DNA of 64,000 nt. Origin: Podarcis vaucheri. Taxonomy: Eukaryota. The stretch is from the NCBI GenBank assembly GCA_965113315.1, contig OZ220368.1. The stretch is one strand, 5' to 3'. Positions within the stretch are counted from its first letter, which is position 1. Every line of letters begins with the position of its first letter. Shown piece after piece: positions 6,433 through 60,029 of the stretch. Under the pieces are notes generated by a model. That model saw only the letters and a list, made by a program, of their open reading frames with translations. It was not told where the DNA came from and ran no database searches. The position numbers and the translations under genes are program-made.

Positions 6433-9078
6433 CACATATTTTGTACATTTTCTTTTCCATTTGTTGGTCACAATCCACACCTCTTCCTTCAAAGTGTAGC
6501 AGAGAACAGATAAATGTTTCATGCCCACCACCCCACAGCTGCTGCAACCCATTGTTTCTAACAAAATACAGTACGTAGTCCTTTTCCAAATGGTTCATTC
6601 ATTGCTATTGTGATACTGGGTTGAGGAAGCACATCACAAGTTCTTGTTGGATACTGTGTATCAGATCATTAGGACCCCTCCAGACTGGTGAGGTTTTTTG
6701 CAGGTGAATTCTGCAACGTCTCACTGATGGAATATTAGTACATTGGTAGTGGCTTTAAAGCAACATGATTAAGCAGTAAATACAGTGGTTGTTGTTGTTT
6801 AGTCGTTTAGTCGTGTCCGACTCTTCGTGACCCCATGGACCAGAGCACGCCAGGCACTTCTGTCCTCCACTGCCTCCCGCAGTTTGATCAAACTCATGCT
6901 GGTAGCTTCAAGAACACCATCCAACCATCTCATTCTCTGTCGTCCCCTTCTCCTTGTGCCCTCCACCTTTCCCAACATCAGGGTCTTTTCCAGGGAGTCT
7001 TCTCTTCTCATGAGGTGGCCAAAGTATTGGAGCCTCAGCTTCACGATCTGTCCTTCCAGTGAGCGCTCAGGGCTGATTTCCTTCAGAATGGAGAGGTTTG
7101 ATCTTCTTGCAGTCCATGGGACTCTCAAGAGTCTCCTCCAGCACCATAATTCAAAAGCATCAATTCTTCGGCGATCAGCCTTCTTTATGGTCCAGCTCTC
7201 ACTTCCATACATCACTACTGGGAAAACCATGGCTTTTACTATACGGACCTTTGTTGGCAAGGTGATGTCTCTGCTTTTTAAGATGTTGTCTAGGTTTGCC
7301 ATCGCCTTTCTCCCAAGGAGCAGGCGTCTTTTAATTTCGTGACTGCTGTCACCATCTGCACTGATCATGGAGCCCAAGAAAGTAAAATCTCTCACTGCCT
7401 CCATTTCTTCCCCATCTATTTGCCAGGAGGTGATGGGCCCAGTGGCCATGATCTTCGTTTTTTTGATGTTGAGCTTCAGACCATATTTTGCGCTCTCCTC
7501 TTTCACCCTCATTAAAAGGTTCTTTAATTCCTCTTCACTTTCTGCCATCAAGGTTGTGTCATCTGCATATCTGAGGTTGTTGATATTTCTTCCGGCAATC
7601 TTAATTCCGGCTTGGGATTCATCCAGCCCAGCCTTTCGCATGATGAATTCTGCATATAAGTTAAATAAGCAGGGAGACAATATACAGCCTTGCCGTACTC
7701 CTTTCCCAATTTGGAACCAATCAGTTGTTCCATATCCAGTTCTAACTGTAGCTTCTTGTCCCACATAGAGATTTCTCAGGAGACAGATGAGGTGATCAGG
7801 CACTCCCATTTCTTTAAGAACTTGCCATAGTTTGCTGTGGTCAACACAGTCAAAGGCTTTTGCATAGTCCATGAAGAAGAAGTAGATGTCTTTCTGGAAC
7901 TCTCTAGCTTTCTCCATAATCCAGCGCGTGTTTGCAATTTGGTCTCTGGTTCCTCTGCCTCTTCTAAATCCAGCTTGCACTTCTGGGAGTTCTCGGTCCA
8001 CATACTGCTTGAGCCTTCCTTGTAGAATTTTAAGCATAACCTTGCTAGTGTGTGAAATGAGTGCAATTGTGCGGTAGTTGGAGCATTCTTTGGCACTGCC
8101 TTTCTTTGGGATTGGGATGTAGACTGATCTTCTCCAATCCTCTGGCCACTGCTGAGTTTTCCAAACTTGCTGGCATATTGAGTGTAGCACCTTAACAGCA
8201 TCATCTTTTAAAATTTTAAACAGTTCAGCTGGAATACCATCACTTCCACTGGCCTTGTTATTTGCAGTGCTTTCTAAGGCCCATTTGACTTCACTCTCCA
8301 GGATGTCTGGCTCAAGGTCAGCAACCACACTACTTGGGGTGTACGAGACATCCATATCTTTCTGGTATAATTCCTCTGTGTATTCTTGCCACCTCTTCTT
8401 GATGTCTTCTGCTTCAGTTAGGTCTTTACCACTTTTGTCCTTTATTATGGTAATCTTTGTGCGAAATGTTCCTTTCATATTTCCGATTTTCTTGAACAGA
8501 TCTCTGGTTCTTCCCATTCTGTTGCTTTCCTCTATTTCTTTGCATTGCTCGTTTAAGAAGGCCTTCTTGTCTCTCCTTGCTATTCTTTGGAAATCTGCAT
8601 TCAATTTCTTGTATCTTTCATTATCTCCCTCGCATTTTGCTTGCCTTCTCTCCCCCGCTATTTGTAAGGCCTCGTTGGACAGTCACTTTGCTTTCTTGCA
8701 TTTCTTTTTCATTGGGATGGTTTTAGTTGCTGCCTCCTGTATAATGTTGCGAGCCTCCACCCATAGTTCTTCAGGCACTCTGTCCAGCAAATCTAAATCC
8801 TTAAACCTGTTCCTCACTTCCACTGTGTATTCATAAGGGATTTGGTTTAGATTGTATCTTACCTGTCCAGTGGTTTTTCCTACTTTCTTCAGTTTAAGCT
8901 TGAATTTTGCTATAAGAAGCTGATGATCTGAGCCACAGTCAGCTCCAGGTCTTGTTTTTGCAGACTGTATAGAGCTTCTCCATCTTTGGCTGCAGAGAAT
9001 ATAATCAATCTGATTTCGATGTTGCCCATCTGGGGATGTCCATGTGTAGAGTCGTCTCTTGTGTTGTTGGAAAAGCGT

Positions 9079-9116
9079 GTATCTGAAGAAGTGTGCATGC
9101 ACATGAAAGCTCATAC
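9079..9116 (+). ncRNA. Minimal type I hammerhead ribozyme motif
   Basis: Helix I GTAT/ATAC (9079-9082/9113-9116); CTGAAGA (9083-9089) plus an extra A; helix II GTGTG-CATG-CACAT (9091-9104); GAAA (9105-9108); palindromic AGCT as helix III; predicted cut after C9112. Confidence 0.8.
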
Positions 9117-9168
9117 CAAGAACTAACTTAGTTGGTCTTTAAGGTGCTACTGGAAGGAATTTTTTTAT
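9081..9168 (+). mobile_element. 88-nt Penelope-like insert nested in the BovB ORF
   Basis: 14-bp TSD TTGGAAAAGCGTGT (9067-9080 and 9169-9182). Hammerhead motif followed by TTGGTCTTTAAGGTGCTACTGG and a T-rich end, as recognised from reptile PLE termini. Confidence 0.85.
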
Positions 9169-10117
9169 TTGGAAAAGCGTGTTTGTGATGACCAGCTTGT
9201 TCTCTTGGCAGAACTCTATTAGCCTTTGCCCTGCTTCGTTTTGATCTCCAAGGCCAAACTTGCCAGCTGTTCCTTTTATCTCTTGACTCCCTACTTTAGC
9301 ATTCCAATCCCCTATAATGAGCAGAACATCCTTCTTTGGTGTCACTTCTATAAGGTCTTGTAAGTCTTCATAGAATTGGTCAATTTCAGTTTCTTCAGCA
9401 CCAGTAGTTGGTGCATAAACTTGGATTATTGTGATGTTAAAAGGTCTGCCTTGGATTCGTATCGAGATCATTCTATCATTTTTGAGACTGCATCCCAGTA
9501 CAGCTTTCGCCACTCTTTTGTTGACTATGAGGGCCACTCCATTTCTTTTACGGGTTTCTTGCCCACAGTAGTAGATATGATAGTCATCCGAACTGAATTC
9601 GCCCATTCCCGTCCATTTTAGCTCACTGATGCCCAGGATGTCAATATTTATTCTCGCCATCTCATTTTTGACCACCTCCAACTTACCCAGGTTCATGGTT
9701 CTTACATTCCAGGTTCCTATGCAATATTTTTCTTTACAGCATTGGACTTTCCTTTCGCTTCCATGCATATCCGCAACTGAGCGTCCTTTCGGCTTTGGCC
9801 CAGCCACTTCATCAGCTCTGGATCTACTTGTACTTGTCCTCCGCTCTTCCCCAGTAGCATGTTGGACGCCTTCCGACCTGAGGGGCTCATCTTCCAGCGT
9901 CATAACTTTTATATGCCTGTTGTCTTTGTCCATGGAGTTTTCTTGGCAGGGATACTGGAGTGGCTTGCCGGTTCCTGCTCCAGGTGGATCACGTTTGGTC
10001 AAAACTCTCCACTATGACCTTTCCATCTTGGGTTCCCTGCTCGGCATAGTTCATAGCTTCTCTGAGTTCTTCAAGCCCCTTCGCCACAGCAAGGCAGTGA
10101 TCCATGAAGGGGAAATA

Positions 10118-10347
10118 CAGTGGTACCTTGGGTTAAGAACTTAATTTGTTCCGGAGGTCCGTTCTTAACCTGAAACTGTTCTTAACCTGAGGTACCACTT
10201 TAGCTAATGGGGTCTCCCGCTGCCACTGCGCGATTTCTGTTCTCATCCTGAAGCAAAGTTCTTAACCTGAGGTACTATTCTGGGTTAGCAGAGTCTGTAA
10301 CTTGAAGCGTCTGTAACCTCAAGCATCTGTAACCCGAGGTACCACTG
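10118..10347. mobile_element. Tc1/mariner (pogo/Tigger-type) MITE, family A copy 1
   Basis: TIRs CAGTGGTACCTTGGGTTA and TAACCCGAGGTACCACTG, TA TSD, internal TAACCTGA repeats. Three more copies are in the window. Confidence 0.9.
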
Positions 10348-15728: not shown

Positions 15729-15943
15729 CAGTGTTACCTCAGGTTAAGTACTTAATTCGTTTCGGAGGTCTGTTCTTAACCTGAAACTGTTCTTAACCTG
15801 AAGTACCACTTTAGCTAATAGGGCCTCCCACTGCCGCCGCACGATTTCTGTTCTCATCCTGAAGCAAAGTTCTTAACCTGAAGCATTATTTCTGGGTTAG
15901 CAGAGTCTGTAACCTGAAGCGTATGTAACCCGAGGTACCGCTG
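15729..15943. mobile_element. Tc1/mariner MITE, family A copy 2
   Basis: TA|CAGTGTTACCTCAGGTTA...TAACCCGAGGTACCGCTG|TA; near-identical to 10118-10347. Confidence 0.9.
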
Positions 15944-21131: not shown

Positions 21132-21465
21132 TAAAAAGGTAAAGGGACCCCTGATCATTAGGTCCAGTCGTGACCGACTCTGGGGTTGCGGCGCTCATTT
21201 CGCTTTATTGGCCGAGGGAGCTGGCGTACAGCTTCCGGGTCATGTGGCCAGCATGACTAAGCCGCTTCTGGTGAACCAGAGCAGCGCACGGAAATGGCGT
21301 TTACCTTCCCGCCAGAGCGGTACCTATTTATCTACTTGCACTTTGACGTGCTTTCGAACTGCTAGGTTGGCAGGAGCTGAGACCGAGCAACGGGAGCTCA
21401 CCCCATTGCAGGGATTCGAACCACCGACCTTCTGATCAGCAAGTCCTAGGCTCTGTGGTTTAACC
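21132..21465 (-). mobile_element. Sauria SINE, near full length
   Basis: (ACCTTT)n tail (AAAGGTAAAGG on +), tRNA B-box GGTTCGAATCC on the minus strand near 21412-21422, BovB-like 3' segment, TSD TTTGTGTT (21124-21131 and 21466-21473). Confidence 0.92.
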
Positions 21466-35495: not shown

Positions 35496-36594
35496 TTCCA
35501 TCAATCTCCTTGCAATATTTACTCGGCATTCCAATGCCAGCACTGAGCATGCTTAGTCCTCATTGGGTCATTTTGAGGCTTACCATAAGATTTTCTATTT
35601 TCTATTTCTGCAAACCTTGGAGTTTCCCCAAGCCTACTGACACCTCCGTCTTTTGTGCGGGTGTCGCTGCTTTGGCTGCCGAAAGAGAATAAGTTTGCTG
35701 TTAGAACAGGCTGAAGGATTATTGGTTCTCTATTTGTTCCAGGGCTAGGCTTTGGCATTGAGAATAAATCCTGAGCCTTGCTAAATCCCGGTTAAAATAC
35801 GACACTGGTCAGTGTTTCAAGAACACTACTAGTGTTTTTTCTTCTTCAGAAGGGTAAGTTTCCAGTTCAGCAGAACTTACTGACCTTCCAGATTACAGCA
35901 ACAACAGCCTTGGTGATGAAGTGGCCAGTGCGATAATCGGAGGAAGATAAAGAGAAGTGTTTGACTGGAACAGCAATACCAGGAAGCGACTGAGACACCA
36001 CATGACAAAGGATGCTCGCTCTGCAGGGAAGGGAAGTGTTTACTTAAGGGCTAGACTTTTACTAGTCTTCTCCAAGGGTGGTTTGAGTTACCTGACCCAC
36101 TTGCATTAGCAAATTGTAATGCAGGCACTGTAAATAGCCACCACACCCTTGAGCGGGCAGACAGGTTGTTTGTCAAATGGATCCAGCCCAGCACCTTTCA
36201 GTTTCACTCTAAATATACAGCAGCTCCAGTGCTAAGTGACGCTGCAAAGTGAGGAGAAGCAGCTTGTTTTCCAATCAGCTGCTCCAACTGCTGCCAAACA
36301 AACCAGAATGGAAAAAAACACTGAAGAGATGGCACCCAGTTAGCCTAAAGTTCAATGCTTGAACCCTATTTTCACCAGAGAAATGTTGGATGATATGCTA
36401 TTGAGCATTACTGCACAACTGACCCCCAGAAAAAAACACCAGTCTGGAGGGGCCTTTCCCCACAGGACTTCTATGCTTATCCATCCCGACTCCTGTTCCT
36501 TTGGACCTTTGAGCATCATACCTTTTGTTTATTGGGAACCAGATATCGTAGGCCTGAGTCAGATCAATGTATTTTGCCTCCCCGCGTCTACATA

Positions 36595-36974
36595 CCGTAT
36601 TTTTCGCTCTATAAGACACACATTTTCCCCTCCAAAAATTAAGGGGAAATGTGTGTGCATCTTATGGAGCGAATGCAGGCTCCTTGGCTTCAGCGATAGC
36701 AATGTGAAGCCTCCGAAGCGCAGTGGGAGCGCTCCTGCCGCGCTCCGGAGGCTTTGGATTGCCTTCACTGAAGGCGAAGGCAATGTGGGAGAGGGAGAGG
36801 TGTGCAGCGCCCCTTCAGCTAAGCGGGATGAGAAATGGAAGGGGCTCTGTTTCTCCTGCCGCTTCGCTGAAGGGGCGCTGCGCAGAGAGGGGGAGATTTT
36901 TTTTTTCTTGTTCTCCCCCTCTAAAACAAGGTGCATCCTATGGTCGGGTGCGTCCTATAGAGTGAAAAATACGG
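36595..36974. mobile_element. Tc1/mariner MITE, family B copy 1
   Basis: TA|CCGTATTTTTCGCTCTATAAGAC...GTCCTATAGAGTGAAAAATACGG|TA; CpG-rich interior. Confidence 0.9.
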
Positions 36975-42571: not shown

Positions 42572-42797
42572 CAGTGGTACCTCGGGTTACATACGCTTCA
42601 GGTTACAGACTCTGCTAACCCAGGAATATTACCTCGGGTTAAGAACTTTGCTTCAGGGTGATAACAGAAATCGTGCTCCGGTGGCGCAGCGGCAGCAGGA
42701 GGCCCCATAAGCTAAAGTGGTACTTCAGGTTAAGAACAGTTTCAGGTTAACAACGGACCTCCAGAATGAATTAAGTATGTAACCAGAGGTACCACTG
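42572..42797. mobile_element. Tc1/mariner MITE, family A copy 3 (opposite orientation to copies 1 and 2)
   Basis: TA|CAGTGGTACCTCGGGTTA...TAACCAGAGGTACCACTG|TA. Confidence 0.9.
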
Positions 42798-46424: not shown

Positions 46425-46852
46425 CAGTGGTACCTCGGGTTACAGACACTTCAGGTTACAGACTCCACTAATGCAGAAATAGTACCTCAGGTTAAGAACT
46501 TTGCTTCAGGATGAGAACAGAAATCGCACGGCAGTGGTGCGGTTAAGAACAGTTTCAGGTTAAGAACGGACCTCCAGAATGAATTAAGTTCTTAACCCGA
46601 GGTAAAGGTCAAGGTACCCCCGCCCATACAGGCCAGTCTTGCCAGACTCTAGGGTTGTGCGCTCATCTCACTCTAGAAGCTGGGAGCCAGCGCTGTCCGC
46701 AGACACTTCCGGGTCACGTGGCCAGCGTGACAAAGCTGCATCTGGCGAGCCAGCGCAGCACACGGAACGCCGTTTACCTTCCCGCTAGTAAGCGGTCCCT
46801 ATTTATCTACTTGCACCCGAAGGTGCTTTCGAACTAACCCGAGGTACCACTG
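46425..46852. mobile_element. Tc1/mariner MITE, family A copy 4, interrupted by a Sauria SINE
   Basis: TA|CAGTGGTACCTCGGGTTA...TAACCCGAGGTACCACTG|TA, with an internal deletion relative to copy 3. Confidence 0.9.
46605..46834 (-). mobile_element. 5'-truncated Sauria SINE (different subfamily from 21132)
   Basis: TSD TAACCCGAGGTA (46593-46604 and 46835-46846); core CTTCCGGGTCACGTGGCCAGC...CCTATTTATCTACTTGCAC...TGCTTTCGAACT shared with 21132. Confidence 0.9.
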
Positions 46853-47850
46853 TATTATTCCAGTTTTAATTACCCCTGCCTGCCTCCCAAGACACATATC
46901 TGGAACTGATAAACCCACCTTTATTCCCTGAGCACCGAAAGATTGGGTTTTAGGCCCCTCAGTCTGTAAAGATGTGTACAGCAATCTGACTTCAAAACAA
47001 AGAGAACTTCGTGAAGTTGGAGGCAGCGGAAGCCTTTGAAGGATCACGTCGTGCGTGTGTGTTTGAACACTAACACAAATTTCAGATTACTCTGGAAACA
47101 AATTCCATTGCAAGTGACCAGGAGCCGCAGCAACCCATGATGAATGAAACAAGCACTTCAGAGGTTAACCGAGCTTTCTAAAGAGGAAGCAGGTTTTGTC
47201 TCCCAGCCCCACCACTGGAAAATATTAAAACAATAAAAATAAGAAGCAGAGGAGTATGTTTTTGTAAAAGAAGCAAATTTCCTGCCTGCTGCGGCTCTGA
47301 TAAATTTCAGTCAGGGATGACAAGAGAAGGGGGCTGGGGGAGACAAACGGACTTCCTGGAAAACCAGACAGGCTAGAATTAATTGAGGACATCTTCATCA
47401 GCAGAACAGCTGGTTCTGGGGCCTAATCATCAGCAAAAACAGAGCCATAAATTGAACAGGAAACAGAAAAGTCTGAATCAAACTTTCAGGATCCAAATGT
47501 GCAAAAGAAAAAGTAAAACACAGCCGAAGAACCAAGCCTTCCGGCAGGAAGGCAACCACCAAAAGGAAGTGCCAGTGGCCTGAGCAATGAAACAGCCTCT
47601 CAGGGCTCCCAGTCCTCATGCCAACTGCTGGCACACGTTCAGCAGTGAGTGGATGCCTGGCCCACTAAACAGAGGCTGCTGCTGGATGATCTTGACAGTT
47701 CAGCGTGAGTCACAAAAGATGCCTTCAATCTCCACAGCACCAAGTATAAGGCTCTAGGGGCTTTTTCTAGTAGAGGAACAAGAGCAGCACTTCCCAGCCA
47801 AAATATTTCACACAGCAGTCGGAGAGACAGTAGAAAGTGAATTGTTTCAA

Positions 47851-56727: not shown

Positions 56728-57033
56728 TCAAAAAGGGGAAGTTGAACAACTAATGGGGGGGGGGAGATGCCAATAACCAAGTTCCACCCAGTAAACAAGA
56801 CTTTGTTGGAGATTGCTCTCTGTCATGGCCCTTAGCTACTGGGGCTGGGAAAGATGTTCCAGGCTACTGAGTATTTGATGCCTTATACACACTTACCTGG
56901 GAGTAAGCCTCACTGAACAGCAAGGGACTTATTTCTGAGCAGACATACATTGGGATTCAGGTGCCTTTGACTCACTCTTGTGACTCAGCAACAGTCTTGT
57001 GTTATTACTGTGGAACCAATATTGGGAGAAATA

Positions 57034-57292
57034 CCGTATTTTTTGCTCTATAAGACTCACTTTTTCCCTCCTAAAAAGTAAGGGGAAATGTGTGTGCGTC
57101 TTATGGAGCGAATGCAGGCTGCGCAGCTATCCCAGAAGCCAGAACAGCAAGAGGGATTGCTGCTTTCACTGCGCAGCGATCCCTCTTGCTGCTCTGGCTT
57201 CTGAGATTCAGAATATTTTTTTTCTTGTTTTCCTCCTCCAAAAACTAGGTGCGCCTTGTGGTCTGGTGCGTCTTATAGAGCGAAAAATGCGG
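57034..57292. mobile_element. Tc1/mariner MITE, family B copy 2
   Basis: TA|CCGTATTTTTTGCTCTATAAGAC...GTCTTATAGAGCGAAAAATGCGG|TA; ends match 36595-36974. Confidence 0.9.
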
Positions 57293-59560: not shown

Positions 59561-59659
59561 TTTCTCTCCGAAGGCTAGAGGAGAGGGCTGAAATCTGTAT
59601 ACGGCTCTGCGGGGCAACAGTAGATAGCAAATATGGGGCTCAATCTCTTCATTGATTAA

Positions 59660-59890
59660 AGGTAAAGGGACCCCTGACTATTAGGTCCAGTCGTGACCGA
59701 CTCTGGGGTTGCGGCACTCATCTCGTTTTATTGCCTGAGGGAGCCGGCGTACAGCTTCCAGGTCATGTGGCCAGCATGACTAAGCTGCTTCTGCTGAACC
59801 AGAGCAGCGCATGGAAATGCTGTTTACCTTCCCGCCGGAAGGTTATCTACTTGCACTTTGACGTGCTTTCGAACTGCTAGGTTGGCAGGA
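59660..59890 (-). mobile_element. 5'-truncated Sauria SINE
   Basis: Near-identical to 21136-21376; possible TSD GATTAA (59654-59659 and 59891-59896). Confidence 0.92.
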
Positions 59891-60029
59891 GATTAATAAC
59901 CTACAAATCACCATTTCCAGCCCTAGAGCTCAGTGGCTGCCAATCTAAGCTAACATGCAAGGATAACATAGTCTTATTAAAAATAATAAACAATCAAAAT
60001 CTTTTGAGCAATGAGAGACACATGCTTCT

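Follow-up and report, generated by a model that had tools for sequence, protein, structure and literature searches.

The terminal inverted repeat (TIR) of a MITE family in Podarcis vaucheri is used repeatedly, at one and the same position, by the Bov-B LINE and by the Sauria SINE, and most probably this MITE end is no dedicated landing pad, serving instead as a passive, high-copy match to the known target rule of Bov-B. At the GGTACC of the TIR, the insertion rate follows an A/T run, be this run part of the MITE or of the host flank. The MITE end that reads TTAAG has a partial run built in and exists in about 40,000 copies, which are thus used again and again at the same position. Target-primed reverse transcription, an established mechanism, underlies the steps proposed here: the Bov-B protein would recognise the A/T run and, about one helical turn from it, nick the DNA at a TA, and the reverse transcription of Bov-B RNA, or of Sauria SINE RNA if the SINE indeed uses the Bov-B enzyme, would then be primed at the exposed end. 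Pairing of one to four bases with the tail, (ACCUUU)n for the SINE, would add a gain of about two-fold at most.

The rule, known as Tn-TA, has already been published (PMC13295347, PMC6007223); the MITE hotspot is a new instance and a quantification of it and does not amount to a novel system of targeting. Among the titles and abstract openings listed in literature searches, none described Bov-B or Sauria SINEs inserted in the TIRs of MITEs, and a word search of the available main texts of PMC13295347 and PMC6007223 gave no mention of MITEs. The interpretation given in the initial annotation of this DNA, in which the Bov-B machinery was thought to favour the GGT^ACC of these TIRs, is partly supported.

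Two insertions at one end of a MITE family

The window, i.e., the whole stretch of 64,000 nucleotides that was analysed, contains four MITE copies that align as one family (family A) with asymmetric ends, the TIR being joined to TTAAG at one end and to TTACA at the other. Like Tc1/mariner-type MITEs, the element is about 230 bp long, non-coding and flanked by TA, with a TIR beginning with CAGT; both the TA duplication and the terminal inverted repeats are present, and the family is probably of the Tc1/mariner type (pogo/Tigger-like). A name for it was not found in the accessible part of PMC10058329. The terminal 12 bases of this TIR recur in several further MITE families (L302, L305, L318, L321, L325-L327) whose interiors differ, and among 136 unselected exact TIR ends, 23 fell outside family A in the scoring.

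MITE copy 1 (10118–10347, plus strand), with TA on both sides and the TIRs CAGTGGTACCTYRGGTTA, carries the first insertion, a near full-length Bov-B LINE of the RTE clade (6790–10112, minus strand; 3,323 bp). Its open reading frame is broken by stops and by one nested insertion, and the domains of an APE-type endonuclease (Pfam Exo_endo_phos, E 9e-10) and of a reverse transcriptase (RVT_1, E 2e-40) lie on separate broken frames. The (CAA)n tail (6790–6799) and the length agree with Table 4 of PMC13295347, where Bov-B is described by a (CAA)n tail and about 3.5 kb. A 15-nt motif from the 5' end of the LINE occurs 192 times in the supplement to PMC13295347, the two occurrences inspected being lacertid Bov-B sequences, and it is over this single motif that the element resembles published squamate Bov-B. 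An 88-bp repeat is nested in the LINE at 9081–9168, with a 14-bp duplication at 9067–9080 and 9169–9182.

The target site duplication (TSD) of the LINE is 12 bp long, with plus-strand copies at 6778–6789 (3' junction) and 10113–10124 (5' junction), and is made up of host AAA, the TA of the MITE and the first seven TIR bases; it ends with CAGTGGT and continues into the ACC of the MITE, the T^A cut falling at 10124/10125. The 3' junction had been placed at 10113–10127, a span that does hold a TSD copy, namely that at the 5' end of the LINE, together with the remaining TIR bases; strictly speaking, the LINE has its 3' junction at 6789/6790. TAAGA (10134–10138, plus strand) occupies positions +10 to +14 relative to the target TA; it is an A run native to the MITE and represents a partial Tn-TA run.

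MITE copy 4 (46425–46852, minus strand) is inverted and internally deleted, and its TTAAG end is split by a 5'-truncated Sauria SINE (46605–46834, minus strand) with an (ACCTTT)n-type tail at its low end. This tail and a 3' segment common to Bov-B (13/16 identical; 22/26 columns for the other two SINEs of the window) assign it to the Sauria SINEs (Squam1). Its 12-bp TSD, with plus-strand copies at 46593–46604 (3' junction) and 46835–46846 (5' junction), ends with GAGGTA ahead of CC; the target TA is at 46845–46846, and the run, full at this site, is TTATT in the host flank (46855–46859, plus strand), again at +10 to +14. The observation that two of the four family A MITEs carry an insertion of the Bov-B system is therefore confirmed, with 12-bp TSDs at GGT^ACC and GGTA^CC. 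Its division into a left and a right TIR has to be corrected: copy 4 is inverted relative to copy 1, and it is the TTAAG end that received both insertions, each on a different strand of the TIR.

The other two copies are free of insertions. Copy 2 (15729–15943, plus strand) has a substitution in both GGTACC-bearing TIR ends, and copy 3 (42572–42797, minus strand) shows TTACA instead of TTAAG at both ends. Outside MITEs, one Sauria SINE (21135–21465, minus strand) has an 8-bp TSD and a target TA (21473) with TAAAT at +10 to +14. For a truncated one (59658–59891, minus strand), no TSD of 7 bp or more was found, and a 5-bp repeat recognised by eye tentatively gives a likely target TA (59894) with CAAAT at +10 to +14. 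An A run at +11 to +13 is present at both of these SINEs, the second as placed by the 5-bp repeat. A second short repeat family has two copies in the window (36592–36681 and 57031–57120), and its end is the SINE target at locus L393. Two insertions among four MITEs make this a lucky window: assuming 0.5–2% per MITE and four MITEs each, 4–59 such windows are expected among 25,233.

The target rule and the rates at single sites

According to the accessible parts of PMC13295347 and PMC6007223, the Tn-TA signature comprises a T stretch about 10 nt upstream, with LINE TSDs that begin with A and SINE TSDs that begin with T. The genome was sampled without selection for the target, mostly in the first 4.3 Mb of one contig, and 182 SINE and 160 Bov-B 3' ends yielded 82 and 42 strict duplications, respectively, window sites and SINE-in-SINE tails being excluded. 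In 72/82 SINEs and 33/42 Bov-B copies, the cut coincides with a TA or has one a few bases away (strictly at the cut in 50 and 32), LINE TSDs starting with A and SINE TSDs with T. When positions are counted from the T of the target TA on the primer strand and one MITE-linked locus is removed (n = 104), [AT]3 is found at +11 to +13 in 84/104 targets, compared with 20.9% of 113,286 background TAs, which in the orientation of the element is the T stretch about 10 nt upstream. Bov-B and SINE thus have one target preference in common, as had been supposed, namely TA plus an A/T run, and this common signature is consistent with the SINE being mobilised in trans by the Bov-B protein.

Some further features of these targets deserve mention. 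Of the 72 SINE targets, 49% have T at -11 and 42% have A at -10, a hint of a TA preference for the second-strand cut that is weak after multiple testing and absent from the 33 Bov-B targets. At the junctions themselves, 27 of 81 SINEs read T followed by exactly AAAGGT, two show T^A unambiguously and the rest are ambiguous. On the primer strand, the first base of the SINE tail is A, so that one T^A nick common to both elements would make SINE TSDs look one base longer, and the published difference between SINE TSDs in T and LINE TSDs in A may partly reflect how duplications are called. Other repeats are hit in like manner: three of 124 unselected targets (L203, L253, L254) fall at one site of the repeat family of 9081–9168, a site that is present 43 times in 1.2 Mb and may surpass the MITE as a passive hotspot, and two further repeats each give the same target site twice among these 124 insertions (L073/L246, L080/L236).

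Rates at single sites were obtained with the first 17 TIR bases fixed, SINE matches at each site being counted by pattern among whole-genome full-length SINEs with one SINE anchor (56,481 copies). The TAAW variant of the MITE end carries a SINE in 35/1,431 cases (2.45%), the TAAG end, which is the usual left end, in 114/40,163 (0.28%), and the TACA or right end in 6/46,412 (0.013%), where about 10.6 would be expected from random placement nearby. The rate thus spans about 190-fold with GGTACC fixed, and the view that GGT^ACC, or an end resembling the tails, is the main determinant is not supported. Non-MITE sites with a YAAW run take SINEs at 1.37% with GG (15/1,098) and at 0.72% without G (218/30,306), so that sites with a full A run and no GG exceed the usual MITE end. 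An average TA is used at about 0.03% (0.028–0.032%), and the TAAG end (0.284%) at about 9–10 times that rate; the matched non-MITE controls are of the YAAW class, and it is with the average TA that the TAAG end is compared.

The same dependence emerges end by end, in 77 TSD-resolved matches of which 16 are Bov-B and the remainder SINE. Where the element enters inside-out and the run would lie in the host flank, [AT]3 is present in 32/35 matches against 33/136 unselected ends (p 2e-13); where it enters outside-in and the run lies inside the MITE, AA occupies +11/+12 in 41/42 matches against 45/113 unselected ends. A position matrix built from the 104 targets puts the classes roughly in order and, with the average TA as reference, gives 1.1–1.4 for used sites (1.2–1.4 for the outside-in site) and 0.14 for an unused inner TA. 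It under-predicts the TAAG end about seven-fold and seems too flat, as non-MITE classes are under-predicted too; matched genome counts were therefore relied on instead.

Nesting also occurs in the other direction, MITE copies sitting in a TA that belongs to the tail or the junction of a Sauria SINE, and insertion of the MITE into a SINE tail is clear in five of 30 loci (L308, L310, L314, L322, L323). The terminal TA of the MITE (136 matches) was for its part unusable as a control, the 30 matches read comprising 12 non-SINE cases, two SINE-into-MITE, seven MITE-into-SINE-tail (five convincing by eye) and nine ambiguous ones. Since nesting goes both ways, the MITE and SINE families overlapped in time; since some SINEs predate the MITE, the true rates at MITE sites are somewhat above those computed. 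The internal GGTACC copy of the MITE is a SINE target as well (L395, L398, L406, L426, L339).

It could nevertheless be argued that the MITE ends themselves are the target and that, for instance, bound transposase, a TIR hairpin or open chromatin raises the rate beyond what the sequence rule gives. The genome has 416,375 GGTACC sites, 32.9% of them exact TIR ends. Among 23,462 full-length SINEs, 372 are followed by GGTACC, and the first 100 of these (98 distinct) comprise 72 with a duplication ending mid-GGTACC, 14 with one elsewhere and 12 with none. These 72 targets consist of 40 exact TIR ends, nine other MITE sites, two SINE sites and 21 others, one of which resembles a mutated MITE end. 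The enrichment expected by the initial annotation is therefore real for TIR ends (40/72 vs 32.9%, p 8e-5; about 2.5-fold in odds for MITE sites) and does not extend to GGTACC as a preferred target in itself, which accounts for 1/104 unselected targets against a background of 0.64%. Most of this over-representation of MITEs is due to the A run. What is left is a borderline, MITE-specific residue of about 1.8-fold for the TAAW end over matched non-MITE GGTACC sites (p 0.06, or p 0.03 without two doubtful control matches), the control being matched at some positions only; the overlap in activity noted above means that transposase could have been present. On the other side, the TACA end, with the same first 17 bases, is not above background for insertions from outside, the second TA, 10 bp inside the same TIR, had no SINE junction, and less than 1% of insertions are at the site, which also speaks against the targeted landing pad proposed earlier. 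Targeting of MITE ends as such is accordingly quite improbable, and it is unlikely that they draw the Bov-B machinery about two-fold or more beyond Tn-TA through a cause other than primary sequence, be it transposase, TIR structure or chromatin; if they did, a DNA transposon family would have acted as a weak sink that took up a LINE and its SINE while their activities overlapped.

The second explanation to be weighed is a choice of site by primer annealing, in which the RNA is captured by target ends similar to the tails (GGTA vs AAAGGTA; TGGT vs TGT) and GGT^ACC becomes the preferred site. At otherwise matched sites, GG before the TA raises the SINE rate about 1.9-fold (15/1,098 vs 218/30,306, p 0.03), the 27 junctions with exactly AAAGGT after T are in register with the tail, and Bov-B tails start with G in 10/15 targets ending with TT against 6/17 others (p 0.16). 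However, G at -1 shows no enrichment (SINE 13/71, Bov-B 2/33, together 15/104; background 18%), GG before the TA has little or no excess (7/104 vs 4.7%), and 58/71 SINE targets lack an in-register match beyond TA, as does the background (82%). Moreover, the TAAG and TACA ends, whose tail-like ends are identical, differ 22-fold, and Bov-B copies are rarely flanked by tail-like targets in the accessible part of PMC13295347. Annealing as the main cause is refuted, there being very little chance that it drives the choice, and it may have a minor effect. The alternative raised in the initial annotation, an endonuclease or an annealing preference, is thereby split: an endonuclease-type preference matches published Tn-TA, and annealing contributes perhaps 1.9-fold for the SINE.

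Recurrence across the genome

Exact-pattern counts over the 1.61-Gb genome gave 55,791 SINE and 17,040 Bov-B 3' ends, as well as 136,818 outside-in and 99,025 inside-out TIR ends, internal copies counted. SINE-tail junctions at the TIR site number 105 and 169 (274 together), and Bov-B-tail junctions 44 and 17 (61 together). The site is used 31–69 times as frequently as uniform placement would predict, and the MITE TIR is thus, as proposed, a recurrent insertion site for both elements. Only a small share of all copies lies there, about 0.5% for the SINE and 0.4% for Bov-B; these figures are approximate, because numerator and denominator patterns differ and one Bov-B tail phase was counted.

Reading of individual loci (30/105 and 30/169 for SINEs, 30/44 and 17/17 for Bov-B) showed that the expected element continues past the junction in 30/30 and 28/30 SINE loci and in 25/30 and 17/17 Bov-B loci. 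Exact duplications of at least 8 bp that end with GGTA at the site are present in 16 and 20 of the SINE loci read, and those ending at GGT^ACC in 10 and three Bov-B loci, long copies exceeding the 1.5-kb flank. That the two cases in the window are a coincidence and nothing recurs, a reading favoured by the absence of TIR targets among the 42 unselected Bov-B duplications and by a single one among the 82 SINE duplications (itself from a MITE-picked locus), is refuted by these counts and next to impossible, since 335 junctions stand against 11 matches of the reversed-pattern controls (2 and 7 for SINE, 1 and 1 for Bov-B) and the expected element follows in 58/60 SINE-pattern and 42/47 Bov-B-pattern loci read.

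Comparison with known systems

Tens of thousands of near-identical MITE ends, with single-base differences 12–13 nt from the cut and rates about 190-fold apart, constitute a natural experiment. It supports the view that the distal A/T run acts causally when RTE elements choose a target, a view for which averaged logos had been the previous basis. Given that the mechanism was published, this causes little surprise. MITE ends also offer defined substrates for a nicking assay. About 2.4% of the best MITE ends carry a full-length SINE at the same base, a warning that SINE presence/absence markers located in such repeats can have parallel origins.

As far as the accessible parts of PMC13295347 and PMC6007223 go, published Tn-TA has the same TA, the same start of the TSDs (A for LINEs, T for SINEs) and the same T stretch about 10 nt upstream, the tails (CAA)n and (ACCTTT)n are as published, and both window sites and the genome sample fit. 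In contrast, the run reads A/T here instead of strictly T, and rates per site in a fixed sequence context take the place of averaged motifs. Two other groups of non-LTR elements resemble this case in part. For elements of the R1 and Tx1 clades, the targets lie in repeats, and L1 and Alu cluster in older A-rich repeats. The former are site-specific (PMC13295347, accessible part), and the latter follow the L1 consensus TT^AAAA (PMC13295347, accessible part). R1/Tx1 and the MITE end have in common that a single position in a multicopy target receives insertions repeatedly; however, only about 0.4–0.5% of Bov-B and SINE copies (SINE 3' ends, about 0.5%; Bov-B 3' ends, about 0.4%) are at the TIR site, and the others are dispersed under a weak rule, so that most copies do not lie at one target as they would in a site-specific element. 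The likeness to L1/Alu consists in a weak endonuclease consensus that occurs in a high-copy repeat and leads to recurrent nested insertions, with the difference that the RTE signature consists of two separate parts, a TA and an A/T run, at a distance of one helical turn.
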